A stretch of DNA of 64,000 nt from Candidatus Latescibacterota bacterium (GCA_965223905.1 CBDCXV010000010.1:1568001-1632000); one strand, 5' to 3'; shown: positions 28,444 to 63,898, counted from the stretch's first letter. Program-made: numbers and translations. Notes: generated from the sequence alone by a model not told the origin.

Positions 28444-28452
28444 GCCCCAACG

Positions 28453-33544: not shown

Positions 33545-33618
33545 CTTAGTCAATGGGATTCGAACCCGGGTAACCTTCGACTGCGACGCCGATGCTCTAT
33601 CATTTGAGCTACAGAGGC
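33545..33618 (-). pseudogene. Degenerate tRNA-like sequence
   Basis: GCCTCTG-TA-GCTC-AAATGATA-GAGC D-arm and GGTTCGAATCCC T-loop; acceptor stem unpaired and anticodon loop only 6 nt. Confidence 0.55.
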
Positions 33619-34243
33619 TCAAAACGCCGTGGTCGGATGGGACCCCCATCTCCTGCTCTCTCCGATGAAACTGCTGGAGAAGCTGGCGGCTCTGGTTCTC
33701 CCGCCCCGGTTTCATCTCCTGCGCAACCACGGGGTCCTGGCGCCCCGGGCCCAGATCCGCGACCTCATCGTGCCGGCCCAACCGGTTGCCGAGCCGGCGG
33801 CGGCGGACGGCTCGGCGAGCGCTGCGTCCTGCGGCCATCGGCGGCGGTGGGCGACCCTGCTGGCGCGGGTGTTTTCCTCCGACCTCAGCGAATGCGCTGC
33901 CTGTGGCGGTCGCCTGAGAATCATCGCCGCCCTGACCGATCCGGCTTCGATCCGGACCTGTCTGGAGGGGGTAGGGCTGCCGGCGATGCCCCCGCCTGAG
34001 CCGCTGTTCGAGTTCGCCGCCTGACCTGCCTTCTCGACCCGTGGCCGTCGCCGGGTACGGCTGGGTGTGCCCTCAACGGTCCCTCAGGCCCCGGATTGAT
34101 CCGGATACGGGCCGACAGGCAACCAAACTACTGCGAGCTCGGTCGAAGGACTGGCAACGATCCTCAGGGGAGTTGCCAGACCCTTGCGGTACGCTCAGCG
34201 CCTTGACCGAGAGTCCAAAAAAGGTGCCTCATTTTACCTATAC
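33617..34243 (+). mobile_element. ISCR/IS91-like remnant 1 (transposase 3' part plus oriIS end)
   Basis: LLEKLAALV.PPRFHLLR.HGVLAP; ends ATTTTACCTATAC (34231-34243). Confidence 0.85.
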
Positions 34244-34909
34244 TTCGATCCCGAACTCAAGGCCGGAGACCTGCTGCTCGTAAACGAGCACACCTGGCAC
34301 AAAGCGCCGAGCGGCACTTCCTCGGAAGATCGGTGCGGAATCTTCAACAAGTATTGTGCAGTCGACGCGCCTCCAGCTGCTGGCTACTATCCGTATAGCC
34401 CGGCAGCCCTCGACGCCCTGAGTGATGCCGGCAAGCGTCTCATCCCCGTCTGTTTTGACAAACCGATCACGACGACGCGCCTTCTAATAGAGCATCCGTC
34501 CGGTCAGGAATCGAGATACCTGATGCTGCATGACGACGAGCACGACCGCTGGGAACTGCCGGGGGGAGAAGGCTGGGAAGAGGAAGGGGTTGGCTGGGAT
34601 ATCGGCGCGCGGATCGGCTCTCTGCAGGAACTCACAAAGACACAGCTCGGACTGGACATCCCGTGGATGTCCTACATCGAGGATGTTGAAACGAAAGACG
34701 GTGTCTGCCGACTGTACGGCTACTCCGATGAAACATTGCCTCCTGACCAACTGGCCCGCGATCGGCATGAGTGGTTCACGAAAGACCAGCTACGGCGACT
34801 CCTCGGTGAGAGCGACTGGATCTGTCGCGCCGTCCAGACCTGGAAGCGCCGGGATATCATTCGAGGCAAAGGCAAGGTGGTCCGCCAGAGCGAACGGCAG
34901 TTCGAGTGA
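34244..34909 (+). pseudogene. 5'-truncated PhyH-like/NUDIX-like protein
   Basis: ELKAGDLLL...TWH...R (PhyH C-terminus) followed by WELPGG; begins at the oriIS boundary. Confidence 0.55.
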
Positions 34910-35511
34910 CGCACACTGGCTTACCGACCGGCCACAGGATTCACATAGTTGGGAATAGCTGCGCTGGAAAAAGCACCTTGGGAGCGCAGCTGTCGGCCGC
35001 CCTCGGCGTCCCCTTGGTGGAGTTGGACGCGCTCAATTGGCAACCTGGCTGGGTTGCTCTGAGCGACACAAACCCCGAGGAACTCGAACGGAGAATAGGC
35101 GAAGCAACCCGTGGTGATGGATGGGTTGTGGCCGGCTCCTACATGCAATTTTCACAACGCATTTTCTGGCCACGCCTGGAGACGATCGCTGGCTGGATTT
35201 GCCCATGGTTCCACTCATCTGGCGAATGCTGATTCGATTCGTGGCGTCGCTGGCGGTCGCAGGAGCCGCTTTGGGGGACAAACTACGAGCGTTTCTGGCC
35301 CCAGCTCATGGTCTGGCGCAAGGAGGATTCGCTGCTATGGTGGATTGTCACGCAGCACCGGCGCACGCGTCGCAGTATGCTGGCATATACTACTGAATCG
35401 TCTTGGAACCACATACGATTTGTGCGTCTTAGATCTTCTGCTGAGGTCGGGGCGTTTTCACAGGCTGTGGCACTCAGGACTGACAGCCTGACAGGCCTCA
35501 ACGAGCTTTGA
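34906..35511 (+). pseudogene. Adenylate kinase-like (FlaR/topology modulation) P-loop protein, two frameshifts
   Basis: IHIVGNSCAGKST, ELDALNW and WLDLP distributed across three frames. Confidence 0.7.
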
Positions 35512-35528
35512 TCACATGAAGGAGTGAA

Positions 35529-36518
35529 GTGGAATACCGGAGGCTGGGCAATTTGGGTATCGAAGTCTCGGTGATGGGTCTGGGTTGCTGGCCCTTCGCG
35601 GGCGGCTCGATCTGGGGCGATCAGGACGACGATCAATCGATTGCGACGGTGCGCGCCGCACTGGACGCGGGCATCAACCTCTTCGACACGGCAGAGGCAT
35701 ACGAGAAGGGTGAGTCCGAGCGTGTTCTCGCACGTGGTCTGGAAGGGAGGCGCCAGCAGGCGGTGATCGCAACCAAGGTAGCCCCGAACCACCTGACTGC
35801 GGAAGGGATCGCGTCCGCCTGCGAGGAGAGCCTCAAAAATCTGAATACGGACTACATCGACCTGTACCAGATCCACTGGCCAAATCACGACATCCCGATC
35901 GACACGTCCTGGCGCGCGCTCGAGGATCTGGTGAGGGAGGGCAAGGTGCGCGCGCTCGGTGTCGCGAACTTCGCCGTCGGCGACCTGTCCGATCTGATCG
36001 AGGTTGGCCGGCCGGAGACGAACCAGCTGCCCTTCAGCCTTCTGTGGCGGGCAATCGAGTTTGAAATCCTGCCGCTCTGCCGCGAGAGCGCGATCGGGTT
36101 GATATGCTACAGTCCGCTGGCGCAGGGGCTGCTGACGGGAAGGTATGCGACGGCTGACGAGGTTCCGGAGGGGCTGGCCCGGACGCGATGGTATGCGAGC
36201 TCCCGCGCGCAGGCCGGACACGGCGAGCCGGGATGCGAGGCAGCTGTTTTCAGCGCCATCTCCGGCATTCGCGAGTTGAGCCGCCAGGTTGGCGCCCCGA
36301 TGGCGAGCGTGGCACTCGCCTGGGTGAGACAGCAGAGGGGAGTGACATCCTTCCTGGTCGGCGCCCGGGATGCGGACGAACTGGAGACCAACCTGCCGAC
36401 GCTTTCGTTGGAGCTCGACGCAGCTACGATGGCCGAGTTAGAGCGCCTGACACAACCTGTCAAAGACGCCATCGGCCGGAACCCTGACATGTGGATGTCC
36501 GACTCCCGGATGCGATGA
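35529..36518 (+). CDS. Aldo/keto reductase
   Basis: GLGCW, FDTAEAY, TDYIDLYQIHWP and YSPLAQGLLTG motifs. Confidence 0.9.
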   Translation: MEYRRLGNLGIEVSVMGLGCWPFAGGSIWGDQDDDQSIATVRAALDAGINLFDTAEAYEKGESERVLARGLEGRRQQAVIATKVAPNHLTAEGIASACEESLKNLNTDYIDLYQIHWPNHDIPIDTSWRALEDLVREGKVRALGVANFAVGDLSDLIEVGRPETNQLPFSLLWRAIEFEILPLCRESAIGLICYSPLAQGLLTGRYATADEVPEGLARTRWYASSRAQAGHGEPGCEAAVFSAISGIRELSRQVGAPMASVALAWVRQQRGVTSFLVGARDADELETNLPTLSLELDAATMAELERLTQPVKDAIGRNPDMWMSDSRMR

Positions 36519-36638
36519 GCCGGGCTGCGCCAGCGCCTCGGGGCTCGTTCGACCAAAGAGGAGGTAGGCGAACATGATCAAACAAACTCACACCGTCGTC
36601 GACATCGCCATCGTCTGCAGCGACTTCGACAAATCGCT

Positions 36639-37799
36639 ATGAAAGTCACGAAGATCGAGACCCTGCGGGCCAGCCGCTTTATCTACGTGCGGGTGCACAC
36701 TGACGAGGGCATAGCGGGGGTCGGCGAGTTGCACCCCGCAAGCGGCACCAGCGGCACGTCGTTTGCGCCCATTGCGGCGGTGGATTACTGCGCCGAGTAC
36801 CTGATCGGCAAGGATCCCCTCCACATTGAGCGCAACTGGCAGCACATGTTCCGCCGCTGCGTGTTTCGCGGCGGCGCAGACACCATGGCCGCGATCGGTG
36901 CAATCGACATCGCGCTATGGGACATCAAGGGCAAGGTAGCCGAGCTACCCGTCCATTCGCTGCTAGGCGGTCCTACGCGGGAGCGCGTGCGCGTGTACTC
37001 CCATCTGCAGGGCGATACCCCGGCGGAGTTGGCCGCAGACGCCCGGAGCATGGTCGAGGCCGGCTACACAGCCCTGCGCCTCTATCCGTTCGGGGCCTTT
37101 GCGTCCGGCGAGGGCACAAGCCTAGAACAACTGTCGTTCCGCGGCATGGCTAAGCACGCCGCGGCTACCTTGCAGGCGGTCCGCGACGCCGTGGGTGACG
37201 AGATCGATCTCATGGTCGACGTGGTCAACCGCCTCACGCCGCCGGAGGCCATCGAGGTGGCCAAGGCCCTTGAGCCCTATGGCCTGTTTTTTTTCGAGGA
37301 TCCCATCGAGCCCGAGAACATGGACGCGTGGGGCCATATCGCGGCAAATATGCCGGTGCCCGTGGCCATGGGCGAGCGGCTCTACACCACCTACCAGTTC
37401 CGCGAGTTGCTGGCCCACAAGGGGGCCTCGTACATCCGGCCGGACCTGTCGCTCGCCGGTGGAGTCACGAATTGCAAAAAGATCGCGGCGCTTGCCGAAG
37501 CAAGCTACGTGGGAGTCGCCCCGCACAACCCTCTGAGTTGCGTCCTGACCGCGGCGTGCGTGCAACTCGACGCCGCCATCCACAACGTCGCCATCCAGGA
37601 GTACCCGCGGGACGAGTACGATGCCCCGAAACGGGATCTGGTCGAGATGCCACTGCGACGCGAGGGCGGTTTCCTGATTGTGCCGCAGACTCCCGGCATT
37701 GGAATTGAACTGAACGACGAAGCGTTCCCGCACTATCCGCCTGTGCCCTATACCCGGTCGCCGGTGATTGGACCCGACGGCGCCCTGCGGGACTACTGA
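36639..37799 (+). CDS. Mandelate racemase/galactonate dehydratase-family enolase
   Basis: IDIALWDIKGK, FFEDP, GER, PHNP and PGIGIE motifs. Confidence 0.9.
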   Translation: MKVTKIETLRASRFIYVRVHTDEGIAGVGELHPASGTSGTSFAPIAAVDYCAEYLIGKDPLHIERNWQHMFRRCVFRGGADTMAAIGAIDIALWDIKGKVAELPVHSLLGGPTRERVRVYSHLQGDTPAELAADARSMVEAGYTALRLYPFGAFASGEGTSLEQLSFRGMAKHAAATLQAVRDAVGDEIDLMVDVVNRLTPPEAIEVAKALEPYGLFFFEDPIEPENMDAWGHIAANMPVPVAMGERLYTTYQFRELLAHKGASYIRPDLSLAGGVTNCKKIAALAEASYVGVAPHNPLSCVLTAACVQLDAAIHNVAIQEYPRDEYDAPKRDLVEMPLRREGGFLIVPQTPGIGIELNDEAFPHYPPVPYTRSPVIGPDGALRDY

Positions 37800-37943
37800 T
37801 TAGAGCACCTTTGGACGCCACGGTATTCCACGCGGGCCCCGGCAGACGACTAGCGAAAAGCTCGGTACTCGTCCCGAGGCAAGTACCCTGTCCGCCCTCT
37901 TAGAGAACTGATAGATGCTATCGAGCATGAAGGTTGGAGGCGT

Positions 37944-39014
37944 ATGATCAGGCTGACTCAAATAACCTCAGAGCAGTTGGAGTGGTACAAAGAACAAACT
38001 GGGGGCTTCTATGGAATGGATTTCAATTTTGGAGGACCATCGGGATTTTTCGGCTTCTATGGCGAGTTTGCTATCTCCAGCGAAGGCCAGGTTGACTTGG
38101 CAAACCTCCTGGTAGCCCATTCTTGCGAACACGAGCAGGAGGAGATGATTGCCGAGATTAGTGCTCTGCGACAGACTATCATGGATGGTCTGTGGTCTGC
38201 TACATTGCGCCAGGAAAATCGCCTCGAAGCTGTCTGGGAGGAGTTTAAGTTGGAGTTTTTCTCCCAACCAACGCGCGATGGAACGGTCGCAACTCATTTG
38301 TTACTCTCACACGACGATCCCGCCATTTTTAGGAACTCCTTGCGGGCACGATCGGAACGCAGGAGGGGCTACTACCCCGTAAGTCCAGAGCAAGCCCCTG
38401 AACAGGCTGAGGCTGTTGACGTGGCGGAACTTGCGCGTCGCATTCAGGGCAAGCCACTAGTGGCGTTCACGGGCGCTGGGTTATCGGCCGCGGCAGGTAT
38501 TCCCGCGTTTGACGGGAAAGGTGGACTGCAGGAGCAATTCCCCATCGACAATTACCGTTTTCCCGGTGCTGTTGCCGATTGGATAATACACCGACCTCGT
38601 GAGACGGCTATAGTACTTGGAACATTCTATACCCGCTTTATGACAGCCAGCCCCACCGAAGCCCATGCGGCTCTTGCACAATTGGAGAAACACGGAATAC
38701 TGAAGCATATCATTACGGGCAATTTTGACGGGCTGCACGAATGGGCCGGTAGCCAAAAAGTGCATATAAACGAACCCAAGTACTTTAAAAGCTCAGACGA
38801 GGGCTGGGCTTGGATCGAGGAAGGTCAGGTAGCTTTGGTTGCAGGCGTGTCGATGGATGCAAATAACGGTCTGCTGGACTATGCCCGTGACAACGCCCTC
38901 CAAATCGTCGTTGTGGCTCCAGAAAGACCGGCCTTCATGCATGCACAGGACTGGTTTGTCGAGGGTCTTGCCGAGGATGTCTTGCCCGAACTGGCAAAGC
39001 TGCTCACCACCTGA
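37944..39014 (+). CDS. Sir2-like protein with an unknown N-terminal domain
   Basis: FTGAGLSAAAGIP, PTEAH and ITGNFDGLH motifs. Confidence 0.75.
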   Translation: MIRLTQITSEQLEWYKEQTGGFYGMDFNFGGPSGFFGFYGEFAISSEGQVDLANLLVAHSCEHEQEEMIAEISALRQTIMDGLWSATLRQENRLEAVWEEFKLEFFSQPTRDGTVATHLLLSHDDPAIFRNSLRARSERRRGYYPVSPEQAPEQAEAVDVAELARRIQGKPLVAFTGAGLSAAAGIPAFDGKGGLQEQFPIDNYRFPGAVADWIIHRPRETAIVLGTFYTRFMTASPTEAHAALAQLEKHGILKHIITGNFDGLHEWAGSQKVHINEPKYFKSSDEGWAWIEEGQVALVAGVSMDANNGLLDYARDNALQIVVVAPERPAFMHAQDWFVEGLAEDVLPELAKLLTT

Positions 39015-39044
39015 TCATGCACTAACCGCTTTCGCCAGAGCTTC

Positions 39045-40198
39045 TCAGGTGCCCTCCTCGACCTGGCGCGCCATCTGCGCCATATAGGCGGCTCGACCCA
39101 TGAGGTCTTTCTTGTAGTTCCAGCGCATCTTTTCCGGGTACATCACCAGGGAGCGATCCGCCAAGGGCAGGGACACCCGGGCGCCGCCCTGCCGGTGCGA
39201 TTGGCGCAGGGCCACGGCCAACTCCAGGGCATGGCGCAAATCGTCGCCGCTGGTGATTGCCAAGTCTCCGCCTTCTTCGAGGACGCGGACGATATCCTCG
39301 ACAATGGCCCGCATCACCGGCCCGGAATCCTGCCAGCCCTCGTCGTCGTACCCCCTCTCCTCCTCGGTGTATTGCTCGAACACCCCTTCCACCTCGACCA
39401 AAGGGGCCCCTCGACCGCTGTGCTTGAACAGGCGCAAACCTAGGGCCGTATTGTTCCAATTGCAGATCAGTCCCTCGCTGCCCACCACCTCGAGGCCGCG
39501 CCAGGCCGGGCCCGGGAAGCTGCTGAAGCACTCTATGCCATTGTCAAAGCGAATGTACCCGCCCACGCCGCCGAAACCAGTGGCTCCTTCCTCGTAGGGT
39601 TCCTCGTGATCGCTATGGGGATCGCCCTCGACCCGGCCGACGACCCACTCCGCCGGCGCCCTGGCGGCGAACTTGCGCGCCAAGTTCAAACCGTGGCAGC
39701 CACCCTGGCCGTTGCCGTCGTACAGATTGATGCCCTGCACTTGGCCAATCGCCCCCCCCCCCCCGCGCGCGGCCAACTCGCAGGCCCGGCGGTAGTCTGG
39801 ATGGCTCGACACCATGACGCCCGAGGCCAGATACACGCCCCGCCGCTGGCAGCTCTCCACCATGCGGTCGGCTGCGGACAGCCGGGCCGTCAGCGGTTTT
39901 TCGCAAAAGATGGCCTTGACCCCGGCCTGGGCCGCGGCCACTACTGCTCCGGCGTTGGCTCCCACCGGCAGCACTGGCATGGCGATATCGATCGACTCGC
40001 GTGCCAACATCTCCTCGTAGGTGGCGTAGCCGGGCACCCCGAAGCGGCGGCAACCCAGCGCCAGATTTTCCGCATCCGTATCGGCAATGGCCACCACCTC
40101 GCACAAGGGGTGCACATCAAAGGCCGGGCCCGACTGGTGCCGGCCCGTCCGCAGCCAATGACGCCGACCCGGTATTTGGCTTCTCGCTTTTCTCGCAT
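39045..40198 (-). pseudogene. Gfo/Idh/MocA oxidoreductase, frameshift near 40125
   Basis: VGVIGCGRAG in one frame and IFCEKPL in the next. Confidence 0.75.
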
Positions 40199-40221
40199 GG
40201 AGAGCTGTCCTAGCTATTGGA

Positions 40222-40439
40222 TTACTTGGGGAAATAGGGCAGTTCGAGACCGGATATGTGCTGCAGGATGCGGATCACCTGGGCGCTGTAGCCGTACTCG
40301 TTGTCGGGTACCACACGTACAGCACGCAGCGCTTGCCCTGGGTAATGGTCGCCCCCGAGTCGACGATGCCGCTTCTCTCATTGCCGACGAAGTCGCTCGA
40401 TACCACCTCGGGCGAGCTAGTGTAATCGATCTGGCCCCG
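40222..40439 (-). pseudogene. gap: 3' fragment of glyceraldehyde-3-phosphate dehydrogenase
   Basis: QIDYTSSPEVVSSDFVG...VLYVWY[frameshift]DNEYGYSAQV. Confidence 0.8.
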
Positions 40440-41336: not shown

Positions 41337-41337
41337 T

Positions 41338-42183
41338 GACACTGCGCTCGACCGTGCTGAAGACTTCCTCGAACAGTTTGGTGGGAAGTACGCAACAGCG
41401 GATGCTCAGCGGATCTTCGACGATCCGGAGATCGATGCGGTCATGATCCAGACGGGAGAATTACACCATCCCGCACTTGGCATAGCGGCTGCCCGGGCGG
41501 GGAAGCACATGTTCATCGAAAAGCCTATCGCCCGCACGCTCGCGGAAGCGGACAAACTGGTGCATGCTGTTCACGAAGCCGGGGTGAAATTCCAGTTGGG
41601 GTTCTGTTTCGAGTACTCACCAACAATTGAACGGGCAAAGCAGTTGATGCCACACCCGGCTTACTCCGTGTGCCAGTGTGCTGCGTCACTCACCGGTCAG
41701 GCCTGCCACAACATCGATCTGATCGTTCACAAGATCCATGATGCGCCACTCACAGCCGTATATGCCTCGGGCGGCAAGTATTTCGACTTCGAGCAGGATT
41801 TGCCCATCGACTCCTTCGCCGCGGTATTTCACTTTGACGATGGCTCTACATGCAGCTATGTACAGCATGGTGTGATGAATCCGCAGCTGAGCAAGTTCCA
41901 GTTCCAGCTTTTCGGTCCGGAGGGGTGTGTGTATGTAGCTGACCGCTTCCGTGAGGTGCTCTGGTATCCCGCGAGTGGTAGCCCTGCTGAGCCCCATCGC
42001 GACGATGTGCTCTACATGGGGCATCTACAAGAAATCGAAGACTTCACGCGATGTATCCTCGAGGATGACCTGCCTGTCAACACCGTGGACCGTGCGCGAT
42101 TCGTCCTCGCAGTAGAAAAAGCGCTCATCGAGAGCGCCACCACCGGTCGGGCTATCGCGGTCACACAACCGCAGATAGCTTGA
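41338..42183 (+). pseudogene. 5'-truncated Gfo/Idh/MocA oxidoreductase
   Basis: DPEIDAV, GKHMFIEKP; the Rossmann start is replaced by ISCR sequence. Confidence 0.75.
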
Positions 42184-42199
42184 CTCGAAAGGGATCGTC

Positions 42200-43243
42200 A
42201 TGGAGAACGTTGATAAGAATCTGGCTGAGTTTTTCGCGGACGAGCCGCCGGGCCAGAAGGTGAACTCGGTCCGCTGGCTTCAGAAGAAGGTGATGGAGAA
42301 AGCCCGAGCGCTGCCGCGCGATTTCAGCACGGTCGCTGAATGGGAGATTTTCCGGACGAGAATGCGCGAGGAACTGCCCCGCGTCATCGGCATTCCGGCG
42401 TTTCCGTCGATGAAGGAAAGTTTCGTCCGCGGTCGGACTCGACTCGGCGACGACGTCATCGTCGAGCGCGTCGACGTGTACGTGGACGACGACTACGCCG
42501 TCCCGTCGTTCGTCTTCTCCCCTGCCGCAGAGCACAGTGAGAAAAGCCCGGCGCTGATGTGGAACCCCGGGTGGCCACAGGACAAGTTCGAGGCGTCGTA
42601 CCAGAAGTTCGCCGAGCGTATGGCCAAGCAGGGTTACGTCGTCCTCATCCCGGACCACGCCCCGTTCGGCGAAACCTCGCAGGTGGGAGAAAAGAAGAGG
42701 GCAAACATGACGCTCGTGATGGGGATGGGACATGTGGTCGGCATCAGTCAGCTCGCGCTTCGCTCGGCAGAGGCATCGCGGTGTGGTGAGTACCTGCGGT
42801 CGCGCGACGACGTGGACGCTGCGCGCGTCGCCATCTCCGGCCTGTGCCAGGGTGGGATGGACACGTGGCTGACGGGCGGGATGGACGACGGCTTCTGCGC
42901 CGTGGCCCCCATGTGCTCCGCCTCCACGATGGCCGTTCACTTCGCCGAGATGCTCTACAGCGCGAATGCCGACGTTTCGCCGTTTCCGTTCGGAATCCTG
43001 GACGTCTGTGACGTCGAGCACCTGCACGCGGCTGTGGCCCCGCGACCGCTGCTGGTCCGGGCGAATCTGCCCGACAACTGGTGGCCCATCAGCGGGCTCG
43101 ACGACATCGAGAGCCTGACCCGAAAGGTCTACCGTCTGTACGGGTGCGAGGACAAGGCCGATATCCGGTCCGAGGTGCACGAGCACAACCTGACCGGCCC
43201 GTTCGCCGATGCGCTCGAAGCGTTTCTGCTGAAATACGTGTGA
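42200..43243 (+). CDS. Alpha/beta hydrolase (acetylxylan esterase/dienelactone hydrolase-like)
   Basis: GLCQGG nucleophile elbow, APRPLL. Confidence 0.75.
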   Translation: MENVDKNLAEFFADEPPGQKVNSVRWLQKKVMEKARALPRDFSTVAEWEIFRTRMREELPRVIGIPAFPSMKESFVRGRTRLGDDVIVERVDVYVDDDYAVPSFVFSPAAEHSEKSPALMWNPGWPQDKFEASYQKFAERMAKQGYVVLIPDHAPFGETSQVGEKKRANMTLVMGMGHVVGISQLALRSAEASRCGEYLRSRDDVDAARVAISGLCQGGMDTWLTGGMDDGFCAVAPMCSASTMAVHFAEMLYSANADVSPFPFGILDVCDVEHLHAAVAPRPLLVRANLPDNWWPISGLDDIESLTRKVYRLYGCEDKADIRSEVHEHNLTGPFADALEAFLLKYV

Positions 43244-43289
43244 CCACAAAAAGGTCGCCGCGCGGTCCGACCATGCAGCAGGCGGCACA

Positions 43290-45233: not shown

Positions 45234-45428
45234 TAGAAGTGCGATACGTGCGCAGAGATCGATGCGGCCGATCAGTTGAAGGCACTACCTCGAAGCAGTC
45301 GGACTGCCAGCTCGGTCACCACCCTTCGCCTTGCCCAAAATACCGCCATCGACACAAATTCGTTTCAATGTAGACTAGCGATCTCTATGTCGCTTATGCT
45401 TCCTATTCTCTAGTGAAGGAACAGCGAG

Positions 45429-50931: not shown

Positions 50932-50962
50932 GACATGGGCCTTATATGAGAAGAGACGAGTT

Positions 50963-51407: not shown

Positions 51408-51717
51408 GACCGAGACGGATATTGCCACGGCTCTCGACGACTTTCTCGCGGAAGAGGCCACGCAGTGCTGGGGGGAAGCCAACGAGGGGTTAGTCGAAAT
51501 ACCGGAGGGCGGCCCCAAAGACGCACTAGTCGAACTAGAAGAGGGCTTCCACCTCGATTAGCCCCAAGAGTCCCTTGCGCCGCGACCAAGTGGCCATACT
51601 AGTATCACCCTGCATTGGAGATTTGCCGTCGCGCTGTGGACTGCGGTGGACTGCTATTTAGGTGCCCTGCTGACGATGCGTAGTATGGCGCGGTTACAAA
51701 CGCTGCGCCGATAGTGA

Positions 51718-51951
51718 TCAATCTGTCATCGTCATCTTGCGAGCGTGGGTAATGTCCTTGTCGGTTACTAGGCGGGCCTGCGATGGCAGCACTGTTGCAA
51801 TGGCAACAGTATTCCCGTCGAGCGCCATGAACTCCACCACAACGGCTTCTCCCCCCGGATGGATATGCACAATCGTGCCGACGTCACCAGCCACCAACCC
51901 CTCCTCCAAGATGTCGCTTATAAGTACGATGCGTTCATGTTCTTTAAACAT
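51718..51951 (-). CDS. DUF4926-family protein (putative antitoxin/immunity)
   Basis: GLVAGDVGTIVH...VEF...G.T; RBS GGAGG. Confidence 0.75.
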   Translation of the reverse strand: MFKEHERIVLISDILEEGLVAGDVGTIVHIHPGGEAVVVEFMALDGNTVAIATVLPSQARLVTDKDITHARKMTMTD

Positions 51952-51996
51952 TTTCATCCTCCGAGCGGGTGTGCTGTGATGAGCCTGGGGCTGTTG

Positions 51997-53383: not shown

Positions 53384-53696
53384 TGAGCCTGGGGCTGTTG
53401 CTCCCTATGTCCACCTGCCAAACCGTTTTTATTTTTGGGTTGCGTCCATCAGGCGTCTCAATAATCCCATCTACATGGTAGCGCGGACCGAAAGCGGTTT
53501 CTACAATCTCGACAACTTTATGGCTTGTTCCCTGAATCCGTAATGCATCCGCTAAGTTCTGCCACTGATCCACTCGAAAGCCGAATCTGAAAAAGAATTT
53601 AGCCTTGCCTCGACCATCGGGACTCGTTGTCGAGAGCAGGTAGCCCGTAATTTTTTCTTTTTCAACTCGGGCATATCGTGCGTTGGGCAGGGTCAA
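53384..53696 (-). pseudogene. DUF6883-like protein interrupted by IS3 (last codons ITAHPLGG* at 51954-51979)
   Basis: KITGYLL...GKAKFF..GF, TPDGRNP.I.TVW; the frame continues across the IS. Confidence 0.75.
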
Positions 53697-53884
53697 TTTC
53701 TCTGGCCTTCATACGTGCATCTCTGACATCAGGTAACAACTCTATCATCCACGACATCTCCTTCAGGTATTCTACAACTTGATCGAATGATGCCGGTGCA
53801 GTTCATTAGCACCATCTCCACGTTCTGTCAATATCCGATTGATGTGGTCAACGCGCAATGGCCCGCCTTTCCCCTTACGGCGTG

Positions 53885-54181: not shown

Positions 54182-54315
54182 CGTATAATAGGTCCAGAGG
54201 TTTCGAGACAAGTGTAAATCCAGCCGTGACGGTCTCCCGTATGAGGGTACCTGAGCACCTAAGATGCGCTTGCCTTGTTGGGGACCGGAAGCGACCCTGT
54301 CACCAGCGAGGCTGC
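54182..54315 (+). mobile_element. Truncated left end of the IS110 element
   Basis: Ungapped match to 60654-60787 with 6 mismatches. Confidence 0.9.
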
Positions 54316-54439
54316 CGGAGATCACCCAGGGGCCGCGCCTTCCTTTGCTGGTCTGAGATCGAATTCACCCGACAATTGGCCACACTGAGAAGTGTAGTCA
54401 TGCCGCCCTCGATGAAGTCATCATCCCGATCTAGACAGA

Positions 54440-54478
54440 CAAAGCCTCAATTCAAAGCCTCAATTCAAAGCCTCAATT
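54440..54478. repeat. Tandem repeat 3 x CAAAGCCTCAATT
   Basis: Three exact 13-bp copies. Confidence 0.9.
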
Positions 54479-54613
54479 CGGATGGAACCGAGCACTGACG
54501 AAACGGCCAGTTGCGGGGGATCGCCACGCCGAAGCAGGAGCTCGACCTGGTCCGGCGCCGGCTGAGGGTGGCCGAGCAGCATTACCGGAACACGCATGGC
54601 GGAGGGTAGAACC

Positions 54614-54952
54614 ATGACCACATCCGACTCGACCGTCGAACGCGGCAGCGGCAACGTCTTCGCCGACCTCGGCCACCCCGAGGCCGACGCCCACCTGCTC
54701 AAGGCGGAGCTGGTCAGCCGCATCGACGCCATCGTGCGCCAGCGCGGCATCACCCAGACCGAGGCCGGGCGCCTGCTCGGCCTTTCCCAGCCCGACGTGT
54801 CGCGGCTTCTGAGGGGCGACTTCGGCGAGTATTCTCTCGAGCGTCTGTTCCGCCTGCTCACCGCGCTCGGCCGCGATATCGACATCGTCATCCGCCAGCC
54901 GCGCTCGGCCGCCGGTGGGAAGCTGCTAATCGCCGCCGCCGAGCCCGTCTGA
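54614..54952 (+). CDS. XRE/HigA-type HTH antitoxin (preceded by the 3' remnant of a RelE/Gp49-like toxin)
   Basis: GSGNVFADLG, TQTEAGRLLGLSQPDVSRL; upstream remnant GIATPKQELDLVRRRL. Confidence 0.85.
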   Translation: MTTSDSTVERGSGNVFADLGHPEADAHLLKAELVSRIDAIVRQRGITQTEAGRLLGLSQPDVSRLLRGDFGEYSLERLFRLLTALGRDIDIVIRQPRSAAGGKLLIAAAEPV

Positions 54953-55224
54953 CACGCCCTGTCCGGCGTTCGGATTAGGGGCTTATATCGAATACTGCGC
55001 AAAACGTATGACTCCGACAGAGGAGGTGACGGCGATGGCGGCCATGGCCGCGGGCGAGGTGCGTGCAGCCGCTTGTCACCCACCGCCTCCCCGGCCGGGA
55101 GCTGAAGGCCGGCTACGACCTGCTCTACGAGCACCCGGAGCAGGCGCTGGGCGTCCTGTTCCTGTGGGAGTAACAGAGTTCATCAGCGCGCGCGGGAGAA
55201 CCGTCGGCAAAGGTGGACGATTTA

Positions 55225-55240
55225 ATATCCAATCGGATAT
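55225..55240. promoter_or_regulatory. Putative operator ATATCC-AATC-GGATAT
   Basis: Palindrome 10 bp upstream of the HTH gene start. Confidence 0.6.
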
Positions 55241-55249
55241 ATTCATGGC

Positions 55250-55753
55250 ATGAACCTAGTTGCCCGCCTGCGGCGCAGCGCCGGTCTGACGCAGGCCGCA
55301 TTGGCCGAGTTGGCCGGCACCTCGCAACCGACGATTGCAGCCTACGAGACCGGAACCAAGCGCCCGAATCTGCGTACGCTCCAGCGTCTGGCCTCTGCCG
55401 TCGGTCTCGGCGTCCATGTGTCATTCGTTCCGCACCTGACGCGGGAAGACCGCCGGAGCCTGGCCCTGCATGAACGGATCGCCGAACGGCTTCGCGCCGC
55501 TCCCGCCGAGACGCTGGGCCGAGCGGAGGCGAACCTCTTGCGCATGCGTGGTCTTCACCCTGGCGCGTCCGACCTCCTCGACGAATGGGAACGCCTGTTG
55601 CAAGGCTCCCCGGATGCACTCGTAGAGGCGCTGGTCAACCCCGGATTGCACTATCGCGACCTTCGTCACGTCACTCCGTTCGCCGGCGTGCTGAGTGCAT
55701 CGGAGCGCGCTACCGCGTATCGGGAGTTCCGGCGCGACGAGATGCAACGATGA
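55250..55753 (+). CDS. XRE HTH protein with a C-terminal antitoxin-like domain
   Basis: GLTQAALAELAGTSQPTIAAYE; RSLALH and TPFAGVLS..ER motifs. Confidence 0.75.
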   Translation: MNLVARLRRSAGLTQAALAELAGTSQPTIAAYETGTKRPNLRTLQRLASAVGLGVHVSFVPHLTREDRRSLALHERIAERLRAAPAETLGRAEANLLRMRGLHPGASDLLDEWERLLQGSPDALVEALVNPGLHYRDLRHVTPFAGVLSASERATAYREFRRDEMQR

Positions 55754-56274
55754 ACCGCGCGCAGTTCGAGCATGCGGTCAGGGCGGCGGCCGCCGTCGTG
55801 GGGGAGCGCGAGGTGATCGTCATTGGGTCTCAGGCGATTCATGCCTGGATCGAAGACGACATTCCCGAGGCAGCGATGCGCTCGGTAGAGGCGGACATCG
55901 CGCTGCGAGAGGATGTCGACGGCAGCAAGGCCGATCTCATCGATGGCTCGATCGGCGAAGCATCCCTGTTCCAGGAGACCTTCGGCTTCTACGCGCATGG
56001 CGTCTCCGTCACCACGGCCCTGCTGCCACTCGGGTGGGAGCAGCGACTCGTTCGGTTCGCGACACCGGCGACCGCCGGTGTCGTTGCCTGGTGTCTTTCG
56101 CCGGAGGACCTATGGGTGGCCAAGGCCCTGGCTGGAAGGCCGAAGGACTTCGAACTGTGTCGGGACCTCCTCCACGCCGGCGTCGTACAGCGGGACACGC
56201 TTGCCGAGCTGATCGGCGACACCGACGCGCACGCCGCTCGAAAGCACGTGGCTCGTGAGCTACTGGCTGAGTAG
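55750..56274 (+). CDS. DUF6036-type nucleotidyltransferase (putative TA partner)
   Basis: VIGSQAI, S.EADI and K..AGRPKD; ATGA overlap with the HTH gene. Confidence 0.7.
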   Translation: MNRAQFEHAVRAAAAVVGEREVIVIGSQAIHAWIEDDIPEAAMRSVEADIALREDVDGSKADLIDGSIGEASLFQETFGFYAHGVSVTTALLPLGWEQRLVRFATPATAGVVAWCLSPEDLWVAKALAGRPKDFELCRDLLHAGVVQRDTLAELIGDTDAHAARKHVARELLAE

Positions 56275-56392
56275 CTGCAGCGCTCCGTGAATCAGCTCAT
56301 ACCGGAAACCGAGTTGCCGGCCTCAGCTCCCGCGGGTAGCGTAGGCGGCCGACCGGCACCGGGGCTATGCTCGTGGCCGTGAGCTCAGCCCG

Positions 56393-56488
56393 ATGACGAC
56401 GGGAGCCGGCGGCGCGCCGGCGCCCTCCTCCACCCCGCCGCTGCTGCAGGTGCGCAATCTCTCCAAGCGCTTCGACATGACACAGGCG
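56393..56488 (+). pseudogene. 5' fragment of an ABC transporter ATPase cut by ISCR remnant 5
   Basis: PLLQVRNLSKRF. Confidence 0.5.
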
Positions 56489-57280: not shown

Positions 57281-57368
57281 TCCATTAAATTCGTGAACAT
57301 ATTACCAGGAGCGGTCAATAGTTGACAATTTTCCGACTGATACAGAGGGGTGTGATGTCAACTTTAGG

Positions 57369-57644
57369 GTGCTCCCCGTGATAATCAGGCCTCGCAGCTT
57401 GATCGCCTTCGTTGTAACCTTGACGGTTATTGGCCTGATGTCCTTTATTCCCTCCCAAATGCCGCAGACAGGGGCGTACTCACTGCTTGACGCGGTTTTT
57501 GTGCCTCAGGTTGAGGCTTCAAATTGCCAAAATGAGCATCAATGCGTCAACGGGTTCGGACCCTGCTCATACGCATCTACCAAGCGGTGTATCTACCCGA
57601 CCGATGGGGGCGGTTGCACCACCCAAAGCGGCGGAAGCTGCTAG
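57369..57644 (+). CDS. Small secreted protein with a six-Cys C-terminal peptide
   Basis: Hydrophobic N-terminus, VEA, then 40 aa containing 6 Cys; followed by a hairpin. Confidence 0.55.
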   Translation: MLPVIIRPRSLIAFVVTLTVIGLMSFIPSQMPQTGAYSLLDAVFVPQVEASNCQNEHQCVNGFGPCSYASTKRCIYPTDGGGCTTQSGGSC

Positions 57645-57666
57645 TTGAAGGGGGATTTCTACAAAG

Positions 57667-57699
57667 GGGGCAACGTATCCTGCAAAGGAACGTTGCCCC
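57667..57699 (+). terminator. GC-rich hairpin downstream of the peptide gene
   Basis: GGGGCAACGT...ACGTTGCCCC inverted repeat; no U-tract. Confidence 0.4.
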
Positions 57700-58001
57700 T
57701 GATCCGACCACCCCAAAATAAATCCATATTTTCTCTGAAACTGGCGAAAAATGAACCAAAAAAACCCTTGTTTTTCGCATATTGCTTTAGGTGTAAAAAA
57801 AGATGGTATGGAGATCTGGATACCATTCGAAGCCAAGAATTTTTCGTAGTCGTAAATGGCTATAAAACAAGCATTTGGATGATCGATTTTCAATGGATAT
57901 TTTGAAGTACGGGCCGTTTTTATGGTTAGTGATGCCTCATTTAATCTGGAAACGTTGCGCGATGAACTAATCAAGGATAGCGGCTAATCAATAGGAAACG
58001 T

Positions 58002-58045
58002 ACCTAACATGTGGCTTAAGTCGTTCGCTTCGCCCACTCGGACCT
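58002..58045 (+). other. 5' half of an attC-like site
   Basis: ACCTAAC-ATGTG-GCTTAAG-TCGTTCGCTTCGCCCACTCGGAC shortly after a stop codon; 3' half not found. Confidence 0.45.
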
Positions 58046-58193
58046 CTCGTTCTCTGGGCCTCGCCCGCAAACCCGGAACTGCTGGAAAAGCAAGGCAGAA
58101 CGCACATATGTAGGTAATCGACGCCCTGGTAACGAATAGACGCGGAGGGAAGTTAGACGCTATGGAAGTCCAAGAATTTACGGGGAGGTACTG

Positions 58194-59996
58194 ATGCACA
58201 CGGATATCCTCACTCCTAAAGACCTGTTTCAGAAAGAGGTACGCTACACCATCCCGCCTTTTCAGCGCCCCTACGTTTGGTCTCAGGACGATCAGTGGGA
58301 GCCGCTGTGGGAAGATGTCCGCAACGTAGCAGAAAACTATCTTGAGGAACTGGAGCGCTCAGGCAACAACGGAGTCGAAGCGGAGCAGAATACAAGCCCG
58401 CACTTCCTGGGGGCCGTCGTTCTCAAGCAAGTTCCCACGGCAGCAAAGGACATCGACCAACGTGAAGTGATTGACGGCCAACAGAGGGTGACGACGCTGC
58501 AATTGCTTCTGGATGCAATTCAACAGATTTGCGAAGAGTCAGACCAACCATACCTCAAGAGAGTCGCAAGGCGTCTGGCCAAGCTTGTTACCAACGACGA
58601 AGAACTCATCGGGGACGATAGGCTTCACATCTTCAAACTGTGGCCTACCAGGGGTGACAGGGAAGCGTTCAGACACGCCATGGACAACGGACTCGCCGTA
58701 AACGACTTTGCGGAGTCGCTGATTGTCCAGGCCCACGAATTCTTCCAGTTGCAAGTCCGCAAATGGCTTGACGATGCAGCGGGGCCAATCGAGCCCAAAA
58801 TCGATGCGCTTGAGGCTGCGGCAACATCGATGCTCCAGATGGTGGTTATTGACCTCAGTCCAAAGGACGATCCGAACCTCATATTCGAGACGCTAAATGC
58901 CCGTGGCACTCCGCTTGAACAGTCCGACCTCATCAAGAACTTTGTCCTTTCTCGGGAGCGCGACCGGCAGGGTGACATCTGGGGGAACCTGGACGACGGC
59001 TGGTGGAGGATGGAGGTCAAACAAGGTCGTCTGTTCAGGCCGCGCTTGGACATGCTCCTCAACTACTGGCTGGCTATGCGCACGGGTTCGGAGGTCTCGC
59101 CATCTAGGGTGTTTGACTTGTTCCGCAACTACCTTGATGACCAAGAAGTCCACGCGATGATGTCAGGCGTCAAGCGAGACCTGGTGAACTATCGTGATTT
59201 CGAATCGACCAGAGGCCGCAGCCCAGAGGAGAAGTCGTTCTACTACCACGTAGATGTCATGCAGGCCCGCGTGATCACCCCCGTACTTCTACTGCTCTTG
59301 TCAGCTGAGGAAGGACCGCGCATCAGAGCGTTCAGTTCTTTGGAGAGTTTCCTGGTACGTAGAATGATTTGCCGTCAGACCACGAAGGACTACAATAGGC
59401 TGGTTCTAGAGCTGGCCAGCCGCTTGAGGGATAGTGGACTGGATAAGGCCGATGCAGTTACCGGCGGATTTCTGAAAGAGCAGACGGCATATGCCAGAGA
59501 ATGGCCCAGCGACGAAGCTGTGGCCGATGCACTGGGGTCTTCTCCGCTCTATCGCCTGCTGACAAGAGGCAGACTACGATTGATCCTCGAAGGTGCTGAG
59601 CGCCGGTTGCGTTCTTCGGGAAAATCTGAACAGCCTGCCGTACCGACGAATCTGACAATAGAGCACCTGATGCCGGTAGGTTGGAGAATAGCGGAGTGGC
59701 CACTCCCAGAGGGCATTGTCACCGATGCAGCCACCTACCAACGCAACACGCTCATCCACTCAATTGGCAACCTCACGCTCGCGACCCAGAAACTCAATTC
59801 ATCCATGTCCAACGACGCTTGGGCGAGCAAACGCGACGAACTCCAAGGGCACAGTGTTTTGTTGCTGAACAACGAGCTGTTATCTCAGCCTTCTTGGAGC
59901 GAGGAAACCATACGGTCCAGAAGCCGACGAATGGCGAAGCTCGTATCAGAAAGATGGCCCGGCCCCGCTTCAGAGAAGTGGAACCAAGCCAAATAG
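58194..59996 (+). CDS. gmrSD: GmrSD-type (DUF262 + DUF1524) type IV restriction endonuclease
   Basis: FQRPYVW, DGQQR, FETLNARG, EHLMP and IGNLTL..N motifs. Confidence 0.9.
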   Translation: MHTDILTPKDLFQKEVRYTIPPFQRPYVWSQDDQWEPLWEDVRNVAENYLEELERSGNNGVEAEQNTSPHFLGAVVLKQVPTAAKDIDQREVIDGQQRVTTLQLLLDAIQQICEESDQPYLKRVARRLAKLVTNDEELIGDDRLHIFKLWPTRGDREAFRHAMDNGLAVNDFAESLIVQAHEFFQLQVRKWLDDAAGPIEPKIDALEAAATSMLQMVVIDLSPKDDPNLIFETLNARGTPLEQSDLIKNFVLSRERDRQGDIWGNLDDGWWRMEVKQGRLFRPRLDMLLNYWLAMRTGSEVSPSRVFDLFRNYLDDQEVHAMMSGVKRDLVNYRDFESTRGRSPEEKSFYYHVDVMQARVITPVLLLLLSAEEGPRIRAFSSLESFLVRRMICRQTTKDYNRLVLELASRLRDSGLDKADAVTGGFLKEQTAYAREWPSDEAVADALGSSPLYRLLTRGRLRLILEGAERRLRSSGKSEQPAVPTNLTIEHLMPVGWRIAEWPLPEGIVTDAATYQRNTLIHSIGNLTLATQKLNSSMSNDAWASKRDELQGHSVLLLNNELLSQPSWSEETIRSRSRRMAKLVSERWPGPASEKWNQAK

Positions 59997-60018
59997 AGAG
60001 TAAGAGCTAAGGAGGATA

Positions 60019-61889: not shown

Positions 61890-62040
61890 CGTGAACCATA
61901 GATAAAATGCCCACGATCGGTGCTGACTGTTTACCGCTTGTCTATACATTACGCAAGCTAGAAGGCGATCAGGATGTTGCCGCTCGTGCAGAACCGACCC
62001 GTTCCCACTCAACCCTGGCCTTGCCCGATCATTGGAGGCG

Positions 62041-63717
62041 TCAGTGACGCGAGCCGATAGTTTTCTGCATCCGGAATCCGTGCGCCGAGAACTGCTGAAC
62101 TAACAGCCCTTTCCTGCCACCACGGACGTTGACGGCCTGCTCGACTACAGCGGCTTTGGTGTTCGCCCCGTGCCAAATCTCTTCGATGGCGTTCGACGGC
62201 AAGTCGATCACCCCTATGGGCCAGTCATTCCTGTCCAGGGATCCTACGTCGCGCGTTTTGTCAGCATCAACCAGCAGCCGCACCTCCGACTCGTACTCCC
62301 ATGACATACCTTTGACCAACAGTAGGCGCGATAGGGACTTCCAGTCCGTCCCGAATGTTGCAAGATCGACGGTTGATTGAATCGAAGTGCCAGCCCGTTC
62401 TTCGCCCGCCCTCAAACGACGGTCCATCTCCTCGCGGTTGGCTAGGTCCAAGCGAATCGTATCGTCCTTCAAGGGTTGGTAGTTCGGTGCCATCTCAGAG
62501 TACATCACCGGCCTCAATTCGTAGCCTAGCGATCTCAGCGCGTCTGTGCTGTACCCGGCGACTATGCCGGTGTTGCGCGCATAGTGCGCCCACATTGTCG
62601 GAACTAGTGGGTCCGTGCTTAACGACACGACTCCAACCAAGTCGTTCAGGAATGCCTGAATGAAAGGCGACAGCCTCGGACTGCCGTGTCGTCGGGCTTC
62701 CACCAAGAGGTCGTACCAAGGCAGTTCAACGTCCAGGTGCGACTTCAGTTTTTTCTGCAATAGCCGAAGGAAGTTTAGCGTGTCATGGTCGCCTCTTCCG
62801 ATCGTCTCGACATTGCATTCCATGATGTCGTTCAACGCGAGCATTTGGGTGGCGCGTAGGCTTTTGGGCGCTCCCTTGTACACGAGTTCCGCAGGGATGT
62901 ACTTGTAGACAATGCCGGGTATTTCGACGTCTCCCCATAGCCACTCCTGTAGGCAATCTTGTGACTGGTATAGCTGAAGCCAATGCGTAGCCAGCTGGCT
63001 GGCTCTAGCTCCCACGCCGCTTGCCTGAGACATAGCCGACACCACGCTTGAAAGGGTCATCTGGATGACCTTCTCGCTGTACGCGTGGTGGCGTTTGTGT
63101 ATGGAGCAGTAGATGCCCTGATCGGCCAACGGGCGGACCGCGGATCGAGCGGGCCTCAACGGCTCGGCAGGCACGTGCAGCAAATCCAGGCCGGGGTTCG
63201 GCGATATGAGGACTGCACCCTCTGGAGGTGGTGGCATGCGAGTCGCTTTGTCCTTTTGCTGTCTATCTGTGTCGCGAATGGCGGTCTCCAACCACTCGAC
63301 GTCGTATTGATAGTGGGCGTTCTTCGATTTGCTGGCACGCCTGTCAGACTCCTTGTGCAGGCCGAAGTCGGCGCAGTACATGAGGTCCAACCTGCCACGA
63401 GAGCCATGGCAGTCGCAGCCATCCGAAAGTGTTTCGCACCACGGATACGGCTCCCCATCGACACGGTAGTCGTCGTGGTCCCAGCCAGCAGGAAGCTGGT
63501 CTACTATGGAGGACCAGTTGGCTAGATTGTCTGCCAGAACAGATGGCTTGAACGGTGTCCCGGGCTTGTGTTCGTCTAGACGCATGCCAATTTGGAGAGT
63601 TAGTCGTGTATGGAAGATCTCGACCAATCGGTCCGGTGACTGAAACGACGCCTGTATCTTCATCCATACACGAGAGTTGCGGATAACCGCTTCGTAGAGG
63701 TGACTGCGCTCTGTCAT
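62041..63717 (-). CDS. DUF2971-domain protein (C-terminal part); the N-terminal part may be a fused fragment, with an alternative start at 63060
   Basis: SLS....PTMWAHYA..G and K..SWEYESEVR motifs. Confidence 0.65.
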   Translation of the reverse strand: MTERSHLYEAVIRNSRVWMKIQASFQSPDRLVEIFHTRLTLQIGMRLDEHKPGTPFKPSVLADNLANWSSIVDQLPAGWDHDDYRVDGEPYPWCETLSDGCDCHGSRGRLDLMYCADFGLHKESDRRASKSKNAHYQYDVEWLETAIRDTDRQQKDKATRMPPPPEGAVLISPNPGLDLLHVPAEPLRPARSAVRPLADQGIYCSIHKRHHAYSEKVIQMTLSSVVSAMSQASGVGARASQLATHWLQLYQSQDCLQEWLWGDVEIPGIVYKYIPAELVYKGAPKSLRATQMLALNDIMECNVETIGRGDHDTLNFLRLLQKKLKSHLDVELPWYDLLVEARRHGSPRLSPFIQAFLNDLVGVVSLSTDPLVPTMWAHYARNTGIVAGYSTDALRSLGYELRPVMYSEMAPNYQPLKDDTIRLDLANREEMDRRLRAGEERAGTSIQSTVDLATFGTDWKSLSRLLLVKGMSWEYESEVRLLVDADKTRDVGSLDRNDWPIGVIDLPSNAIEEIWHGANTKAAVVEQAVNVRGGRKGLLVQQFSAHGFRMQKTIGSRH

Positions 63718-63823
63718 TCTTGCGTTTCCCTAAACGGTCGTGCCAAAGCTACGACGTGCCATTCGGTGCTGTCAGTTCTCACACGAGCTCGGCGGGATTT
63801 GAAATGTCTGCGCGGCGAAGGCG

Positions 63824-63898
63824 TTCCTCCGACATCAGCGAATGCGCAGCCTGTGGCGGGCGCCTGCGGATCGTCGCCGCCTGACCTGCCTTTTCGAC
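63824..63898 (+). mobile_element. ISCR/IS91-like remnant 7 (short, internally deleted)
   Basis: TTCCTCCGAC.TCAGCGAATGCGC..CTGTGGCGG.CGCCTGCGGATCGTCGCCGCCTGACC. Confidence 0.8.

Follow-up and report, generated by a model that had tools for sequence, protein, structure and literature searches.

The right half of a 64,000-nucleotide stretch of a Candidatus Latescibacterota genome (genome G000, contig C10:1568001-1632000; hereafter the window, whose numbering is used below unless a contig is named) contains seven remnants of a single ISCR-like element of the IS91 insertion sequence (IS) family. G000 is a metagenome-assembled genome (MAG) of 7.9 Mb in 11 contigs, with 64% G+C, a completeness of 93.6% and a contamination of 5.1%. 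The remnants were delimited by blastn against a reference copy of 1766 bp (G000 C1:927560-929325) chosen after the alignment of five long copies, and a direct-repeat search of the window gave overlapping families in its right half that were the same as those found by blastn. All seven remnants lie on the plus strand (7/7; chance 1/64), share between 78 and 95% pairwise identity and are incomplete (0/7 full-length), the largest one spanning reference positions 541-1436, and a Pfam scan of the window open reading frames (ORFs) detected in them pieces of the Y2_Tnp domain only. A first-pass annotation of this DNA had described seven co-oriented remnants, none complete, as found here, and its start positions were exact for six of the seven, the fifth being 56485 instead of 56489. 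It was also right that five remnants keep the 3' tail with a CCTATAC-like end: this end reads CCTATAC in copies 1 and 5 and CCTATGC in copy 3, and is interrupted by an IS110 element or its remnant in copies 4 and 6. A further co-oriented copy at C10:1646248-1647169 extends the array to at least 45 kb, of which the window holds the left 30 kb.

Remnant 1 (33617-34243; reference 1131-1766) ends in CCTATAC followed by TTCG. At its left junction a possible tRNA-like fragment (33558..33618, minus strand) was recognized by eye from a D-arm and GGTTCGAATC, its 3' end being missing; the tRNA that had been annotated at this place was called neither by ARAGORN nor by Rfam (E up to 1), and a scan of the whole window at the Rfam gathering thresholds returned no family. 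Block A (34244..40438) separates remnants 1 and 2. It begins exactly at the terminus of remnant 1 with a PhyH C-terminal/Nudix-like ORF (34244-34906, plus strand) and continues with an aldo/keto reductase gene (35520-36515), the head of a glyoxalase-like gene cut at 36638, an enolase-superfamily gene (36639-37796) to whose ATG this head is fused at the deletion junction 36638..36639, a SIR2-domain protein gene (37944-39011), a Gfo/Idh/MocA gene (39045-40115, minus strand) and a GAPDH C-terminal fragment (about 40225-40438, minus strand) that abuts the left end of remnant 2. The latter (40439-41336; reference 541-1436) is truncated at both ends and mosaic. Block B (41337..47720) starts at the right end of remnant 2 with a headless Gfo/Idh/MocA gene that lacks profile positions 1-32 (41337-42180), followed by a DLH-like gene (42200-43240), the genes of a DUF6785/DUF6784 membrane protein (43290-45230) and a CHU_C-tailed protein (45429-47456), and a PhyH N-terminal head (about 47540-47720, plus strand) abutting the left end of remnant 3. 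This remnant (47721-48387, reference 1107-1766; blastn match 47721-48385 to 1107-1764) ends in CCTATGC followed by TTCC.

Block C (48388..53884) carries the head of a secreted-protein gene with a signal peptide (minus strand), cut by the terminus of remnant 3, genes for a PhyH-domain protein (48633-50321, minus strand) and a GNAT protein (50976-51404), and an IS3-family element (51980-53383) placed within a DUF6883 gene. The IS3 element is polymorphic, as contigs of sequencing runs X15, X17 and X20 join 51979 to 53384 (empty site). In remnant 4 (53885-54181; reference 1471-1762) the final ATAC is replaced by a 137-bp left-end remnant of an IS110 element (54182-54318), with which block D (54182..56484) begins; this block encodes an HTH_37 protein, an HTH_3 protein and a DUF6036 nucleotidyltransferase-like protein, and ends in an ABC ATPase head (about 56390-56484) that runs up to remnant 5. 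Remnant 5 (56485-57280) aligns in two parts (56485-56744 to reference 613-872 and 56734-57280 to 1198-1766) and represents one copy with an internal deletion; its terminus is CCCTATAC, ending in CCTATAC followed by TC. Block E (57281..60018), between remnants 5 and 6, contains right after this terminus a repeat of about 90 bp (57291-57384) with six further copies of 96-99% identity in four contigs, which suggests a miniature mobile element or a repetitive extragenic palindromic (REP)-like sequence, and farther on a GmrSD-type (type IV restriction) gene (58194-59993). Remnant 6 (60019-60653; reference 1131-1762) has its ATAC displaced to 61944-61947 by an IS110-family element lodged inside the terminus (60654-61943, plus strand; transposase 60903-61886). 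Block F (61948..63823) encodes a DUF2971 protein (62044-63717, minus strand; PADLOC candidate PDC-S31) and is followed by remnant 7 (63824-63881), a 58-bp piece corresponding to reference 1389-1445.

Three further features lie in the left half of the window or at its border with the array. An unrelated IS with a UPF0236-type transposase (31665-33245, plus strand) stands just left of the array; it has 13 further copies of 99.7-100% identity in five contigs and is a currently active element. At 27136-28944, shortly before the array begins, a gene for a DUF4143 ATPase (PADLOC candidate PDC-S01, E 1.5e-71) neighbours a HepT-like toxin gene. Outside the array, a 125-bp direct repeat (7935-8059 and 9084-9208) is 99% identical over a spacing of 1149 bp.

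The DNA between the remnants is thus made of defence, metabolic and fragmentary genes and not of resistance genes, and the annotation had correctly placed the cargo outside the antibiotic-resistance context, judging from the Pfam and PADLOC annotation of the window genes. Apart from the tRNA, the pairs of non-matching flanks that it had listed were recovered on translation (PhyH C-terminus, GAPDH and Gfo/Idh/MocA, PhyH and secreted-protein head, ABC head). We considered whether the PhyH head to the left of copy 3 and the PhyH tail to the right of copy 1 might be halves of one gene, and they do not rejoin. The head resembles the paralogues at C10:2053003 and C1:1698156 as far as residue 59 or so, and the tail, which by eye begins at about residue 155, shows no detectable tblastn similarity; therefore the two are either unrelated or about 95 codons are missing. 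The search for intact source genes also gave a negative answer: a whole-window blastn found no second copies of the truncated PhyH, Gfo/Idh/MocA, GAPDH, ABC and secreted-protein fragments in the genome, with the exception of a duplicate of block A in a second array described below. No tyrosine recombinase was detected in the Pfam scan of window ORFs of at least 110 aa beyond position 28000; attC sites were not searched for.

The non-autonomous remnants consist of the 3' portion of the transposase gene followed by a tail. The feature common to the complete tails is a precise terminus, ...TTTTACCTATAC, after which the flanks diverge from the very next base. Complete tails end in ...GGTGCCTCATTTT(A/T)CCTATAC, and the intact tail of about 220 bp, ending in ...GGTGCCTCATTTTACCTATAC, is followed by unrelated DNA that nearly always begins with TT. 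Exact CCTATAC was present in 15 of the 22 G000 3' ends, with TT next in 14 of these 15. The same dinucleotide follows 50 of 52 canonical ends in array regions of three relatives, namely G002 (a congeneric sister genome with a closed chromosome, assembled separately), G004 and G020, which makes 64 of 67 canonical termini overall. Scanning G000 for the exact motif gave 18 sites, against 1 to 3 for four scrambled motifs. Three of these 18 (C10:1459903, 1465385 and 1647169) belong to an alternative-tail subfamily whose match to the reference stops at position 1598 and whose internal tail is different but has the same last 20 or so bases; here the next dinucleotide is AT in 3/3. The target adjoining the terminus can be described as a tetranucleotide that opens with TT or AT and whose last two bases are free. 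Two of the three window tails have a predicted subterminal palindrome, which reads CTCGGTCAAGG...CCTTCGACCGAG on the bottom strand. In the parts of PMC13181058 that deal with IS91, the element is said to have two different ends, oriIS and terIS, and to pass through a circular single-stranded intermediate, and its targets CTTG, GTTC and GTCC all have T at position 2 beside oriIS. According to the same source, 1-14% of events do not terminate properly and mobilise the DNA next to the element (one-ended transposition), the frequency of one-ended transposition being also given as 1-10%.

The terminus is itself a target of another mobile element. The two interrupted window copies stop at ...TTTTACCT, and the complete IS110-family element of remnant 6 sits exactly within the terminus (...TTTTACCT, element, ATAC at 61944), its insertion point being between ATTTTACCT and ATAC. 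The same element occupies the same position in a different, alternative-tail remnant of the sister genome (G002:C1 about 6289927-6291353, L078), and some 150 nt into its left end ATTTTACCTCG is found again. The placement suggests that the IS110 element targets the oriIS terminus by its sequence, which would add a second layer to the system, in which one mobile element repeatedly and specifically targets another.

Long copies of the element at C11:524109 and C1:927560 encode the domains Zn_Tnp_IS91 (PF14319, E 8e-21 and 1e-18) and Y2_Tnp (PF04986, E 6e-29 and 3e-29). The top NCBIfam model was ISCR clade Ia (NF052416), with 363.9 bits over residues 24-476 and a curated cut-off of 925 that was not reached; the IS91 equivalog NF033538 scored 108.1 bits, below its cut-off of 125. 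Because both scores fall under the cut-offs, the element lies outside both curated families. Among plasmid-borne proteins, its nearest relatives are transposases of the ISVsa3 (ISCR2) type, with 41.8% identity over 88% of the protein; in an ISVsa3/ISCR2 plasmid copy the 3' end is overlapped by erm(42). By these comparisons the element is a distant IS91-family member, for which ISCR-like is a fair name, and the annotated ISCR-like repeat with an oriIS-type terminus beside a T-containing target was borne out by the domains, the NCBIfam search and the motif scan. The two ends of the element are dissimilar, the conserved terminus lying about 220 bp past the stop codon and the left end being different and poorly conserved. 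An intact transposase gene, which the first-pass annotation had proposed to look for, does exist in G000: the copy at C11:524109-525873 (L083:609-2373) is open over 502 codons without a break and encodes 480 residues when counted from the first Met. No other intact transposase ORF of the family was found in this genome, the remaining long copies having frameshifts or stops, and the terminus of the C11 copy is non-canonical and devoid of CCTATAC. The predicted protein (P0001) includes NPHLHVLLLDG, LCRYVARP and LLRYHGVL, read by eye as candidate HUH and tyrosine motifs. The 502-residue ORF showed the Zn_Tnp_IS91 and Y2_Tnp domains and no helicase domain. The C11 copy may provide transposase in trans while being itself immobile.

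Across the whole genome, 55 blastn matches to the reference were found, which corresponded to 48 copies after the collinear pieces were merged. The 3' end is reached by 22 of them and the 5' end by 4, so that 20 copies keep the 3' end only and 2 the 5' end only. Among neighbouring copies within 25 kb of each other, 32 of the 33 pairs are co-oriented and 1 is opposite. Matches to the tail occur in 20 of 41 related genomes, G000 counted, and in 16 of the 24 within the family other than G000. The fetched regions of G002, G004 and G020 contain 4 to 31 copies each, and their neighbour pairs are in the same orientation in 83 cases and opposite in 0; these regions were picked for clustered hits, and their orientation counts are descriptive and not independent. 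The largest array in a relative comprises at least 31 copies in 135 kb. Retained lengths are skewed to short tails: of the 78 tails extending to the end, 60 begin past reference position 1100, compared with 27.5 expected under uniform breakpoints, a test that overstates the effect as the copies are kin to one another and not independent. Copying initiated at the terminus is the best explanation of these data, since it accounts for the 3'-end excess and the co-orientation more easily than random decay. The 20 to 2 excess of 3' ends goes beyond what random decay would give, and therefore most copies would come from events that copied the terminus along with a leftward stretch of varying length.

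A common orientation might also be imposed by the replication fork if the element inserted into the single-stranded lagging-strand template, as IS200/IS605 elements do, with one orientation per replichore as the outcome. IS91 is described as inserting as a single-stranded circle (PMC13181058, in its part on this element), and the arrays do hold one orientation over tens of kb. However, the copies are on the minus strand at C10 343-562 kb and on the plus strand on C11, and the cumulative skew falls in both; the orientation flips between C10:1441 kb and 1459 kb within one skew segment, and in G020 it changes at least four times along one chromosome among the matches listed. The cumulative GC skew of five large contigs, which is weak in this genome, did not track orientation, and this candidate was rejected as an account of the polarity; we regard a fork bias as very improbable.

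Comparison with a second array on the same contig and with the sister genome revealed how the present arrangement of the window may have arisen. Window positions 34634-40868 correspond to two pieces of the second array (C10:377654-375566 and 358613-354383) with 99.4-100% identity. In the second array the glyoxalase-like gene is intact, and about 17 kb with four remnants stand between it and the enolase-family gene; the window junction 36638/36639 is evidently a deletion relative to it. G002 has its own deletion 18 bp beyond 36638. Three independent junctions fall within 18 bp in the glyoxalase-like gene (window 36638, C10:372417 and G002:C1:6315398), two of them at the same nucleotide, and no known ter-like motif was found at these clustered junctions. 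Remnant 2 is 99.9% identical to C10:354812-354384 in its left part, up to reference 968, and for its segment from 1224 to 1436 (window 41127-41336) the identity to the fragment next in line in the second array drops to 91%; because the high identity stops at 968, inside the remnant, remnant 2 is a recombinant mosaic.

In G002, block B is likewise followed by remnant 3 and part of block C, with 96-99.8% identity and the same 1107 breakpoint, block B being 99.6-99.8% identical to G002:6298115-6303776. To the left of block B, G002 shows an intact terminus and TTGCCTGGTG; in the window, remnant 2 breaks off at reference 1436 and these 10 bases are missing. The G002 type of left junction is also present in contigs of three further runs from other studies, and the window type in a contig of run X15. 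The junction 41336/41337 is therefore a second deletion, relative to G002 and the three other runs. The X15 contig matches window 41307-47750 exactly, with only 30 letters past each junction (threshold 31), and X15 may be the source sample. For block A, the contigs of runs X17 to X20 left parts without cover or provided only divergent sequence. The identity of 98-100% between G000 and G002 blocks had raised the idea of a recent interspecies transfer, which was given up in view of the 90-98% identity that the adjoining core DNA shows as well.

These shared junctions bear on whether the array is real. G000 is a MAG with the contamination given above, and repeats of this kind can lead to misassembly or chimerism. 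Misassembly is nevertheless unlikely because the copies have diverged, being only 78-95% alike, and because G002, a separately assembled closed genome, shares the junctions of copy 3 (block B, remnant 3 and block C) and the right junction of copy 1 (remnant 1 and block A). Moreover, block B with a remnant terminus at its left edge occurs in contigs of four runs from four studies. An artefact of assembly seems to us hardly credible.

A more serious alternative is that the array is a passive graveyard, in which full-length elements were inserted independently into a permissive accessory island and then shortened by random deletion, inverted copies having been lost or rearranged. Later deletion, which the first-pass annotation had set against capture, was indeed found at 36638/36639 and 41336/41337, and the truncation of copy 1 differs from that of its G002 orthologue: the latter starts at reference 1237 with another left flank, compared with 1131 in the window, and therefore the 5' side was remodelled in place. 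The crowding of the region with other IS (UPF0236-type, IS3 and IS110) and the lack of a source copy elsewhere in the genome for the window cargo genes are also in keeping with such a history. Random deletion, however, would hit both ends equally, contrary to the 20 to 2 ratio observed, the co-orientation of 32 pairs to 1 would need an added argument of selection, and near-identical duplicates of flank plus remnant that stop exactly at the terminus, described below, would be left unexplained. We consider a purely passive origin rather unlikely and retain terminus-initiated copying as the source of most copies, with illegitimate deletions, of the kind shown by these three comparisons, trimming the array later.

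The order of the blocks also differs between the two genomes. The remnant 1 orthologue and block A, up to 36638, are present in G002 downstream of blocks B and C and not upstream. At a second locus, G002:6010992-6016516 has remnant 813-1766 between a left and a right flank; in G000 the order is remnant, that same right flank, 645 bp, that same left flank, remnant. Block order is thus circularly permuted between G000 and G002 at two loci. The homology-anchored integration at the repeat that had been proposed fits this permutation. The permutation and the mosaic structure of remnant 2 show that co-oriented remnants have served later as portable homology for recombination. Polarised growth of the array in relatives, also proposed, could not be demonstrated, as block order differs between G000 and G002 and growth is therefore unreadable from the locus. 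The present order is a reshuffled and partly decayed product and not a record of stepwise growth.

Circular permutation would also be expected if each block were a cassette. Replication would then run from one terminus to the next co-oriented one upstream, and the resulting single-stranded circle with one block would re-insert at a terminus/NT site, the termini forming an integron-like platform that lacks an integrase and receives its transposase in trans from a copy without its own terminus. Rolling-circle plasmids and relaxases are known to stop at a second origin placed in direct repeat, which counts in favour of this scheme. The termini are all co-oriented, 2 to 9 kb apart and adjoined by the target dinucleotide, and the upstream neighbours of block B differ between G000 and G002. 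Against it, no duplicated or polymorphic unit had termini at both boundaries, the duplicated units begin inside cargo, and the boundaries of shared segments that were studied fall inside genes or remnants. Both the circulation of single blocks and the existence of such a platform appear doubtful to us; if true, defence and accessory genes would be shuffled across Latescibacterota in this way.

Duplicated units also bear on copying from the terminus. In the second array, a unit formed by a 765-bp flank and a remnant (reference 1188-1766) occurs twice with 100% identity, 3148 bp apart, and what follows on the right differs between the two; on the left, the unit is bounded by the very nucleotide of the window junction 36638. 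In G020, a unit of a 380-bp flank plus remnant occurs twice with 99.1% identity, and the homology stops at the terminus plus TT. In addition, the 300 bp that follow the terminus at C10:554334 are 100% identical to window 1654-1953, within an intact ORF (938-1909), and the site in the intact gene that matches this junction reads G/TTTC. This ORF has a low G+C content (53%) and encodes a membrane-like protein, and its 5' part has many diverged paralogues (68-81%). The duplicated units and the C10:554334 match fit initiation at the terminus, termination somewhere upstream and joining at an N-T target, and they are not proof of it.

We therefore propose a composite history, which we hold with moderate confidence: rolling-circle copying from the terminus, followed by recombination between co-oriented remnants and by illegitimate deletion. 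An HUH transposase acting in trans, for which the only intact gene found is that at C11:524109-525873, would nick the conserved terminus (oriIS), and replication would displace a strand leftwards. Termination would be imprecise, as in the one-ended transposition of IS91. A stop inside a dead transposase gene would yield a 5'-truncated copy, and a stop in the upstream DNA a unit of upstream DNA plus remnant; the product would be joined beside an N-T-type target. The rolling-circle capture claimed by the first-pass annotation is partly supported: end asymmetry, co-orientation and duplicated units speak for it, and neither a circle nor a capture event was observed.

Several observations weigh against this scheme. 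The sole intact transposase gene lacks a canonical terminus, and its activity is only predicted. The terIS end is ill-defined, with a left boundary that is not base-exact, as few copies reach it and several share upstream DNA. The subterminal hairpin is weakly supported (z -2.0, -1.3 and +0.07). The right junction of the 765-bp unit is old, as G002 has it too, there preceded by a longer remnant, and therefore the duplicate may reflect recombination or gene conversion and not a fresh insertion. An empty site was not found for this unit in 41 related genomes, nor for the G020 unit in 5 genomes, and the relatives and run contigs gave neither a circular junction nor a filled and empty pair for a truncated unit. 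The left boundaries of the duplicated units show no CTTG-, GTTC- or CTCG-like motif. Finally, at least three of the junctions studied were made by deletion, so that truncation is in part plain decay.

ISCR and IS91 elements have been studied almost only as carriers of resistance genes on clinical plasmids, and capture has rarely been seen elsewhere. Here, dozens of strictly polar arrays of tens to more than 100 kb are present in the chromosomes of several Candidatus Latescibacterota genera, with a cargo that spans a type IV restriction enzyme, candidate defence genes, metabolic enzymes and many gene fragments. G000, G002 and four runs differ by deletion, recombination within remnants and permutation, and so constitute a natural series in which steps of capture long proposed and poorly documented (imprecise termination, circles, rescue by homology) can be tested. 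A limited literature search, which is no proof of absence, found no reports of such arrays in environmental chromosomes or in Latescibacterota.

Among the known systems, ISCR2 (ISVsa3) and the ISCR1 of complex class 1 integrons have the same IS91-family HUH transposase domains, and in them, as apparently here, only the oriIS end is well conserved. The ISCR sections of PMC7530245 and PMC3575428 describe complete and truncated co-oriented copies amid resistance genes, and propose that circles form between co-oriented copies. Unlike these, the arrays reported here are chromosomal, belong to an uncultured marine phylum, and have no resistance cargo and no integron 3' conserved segment (3'-CS) as an anchor; their scale is also different, with 48 copies in G000 and, in a relative, a single 135-kb array that holds at least 31. 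IS91, IS801 and IS1294 are alike in their distinct ends and in the T at position 2 of the target, whereas the targets here are not CTTG or GTTC, and arrays of truncated copies are not a feature described for these elements in the relevant part of PMC13181058. A case with non-resistance, catabolic genes is that of sdpA and rdpA in Sphingobium herbicidovorans, for which the pertinent section of PMC5737581 reports several IS91 elements, a terminal region shared for duplication and an observed 11-kb circle, and proposes one-ended transposition. That system involves a plasmid, a few intact elements and experimental circles, in contrast to the dozens of dead chromosomal remnants described here. Helitrons offer a parallel in mode of operation: in the portion of PMC4778049 on Helraiser, they are rolling-circle elements with a fixed initiating end, an imprecise terminator, transduction of flanks and non-autonomous copies that are truncated or chimeric. 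They are, however, elements of eukaryotes with a Rep-helicase fusion protein, whereas the element in Latescibacterota has no helicase; the likeness is one of working mode and not of family.

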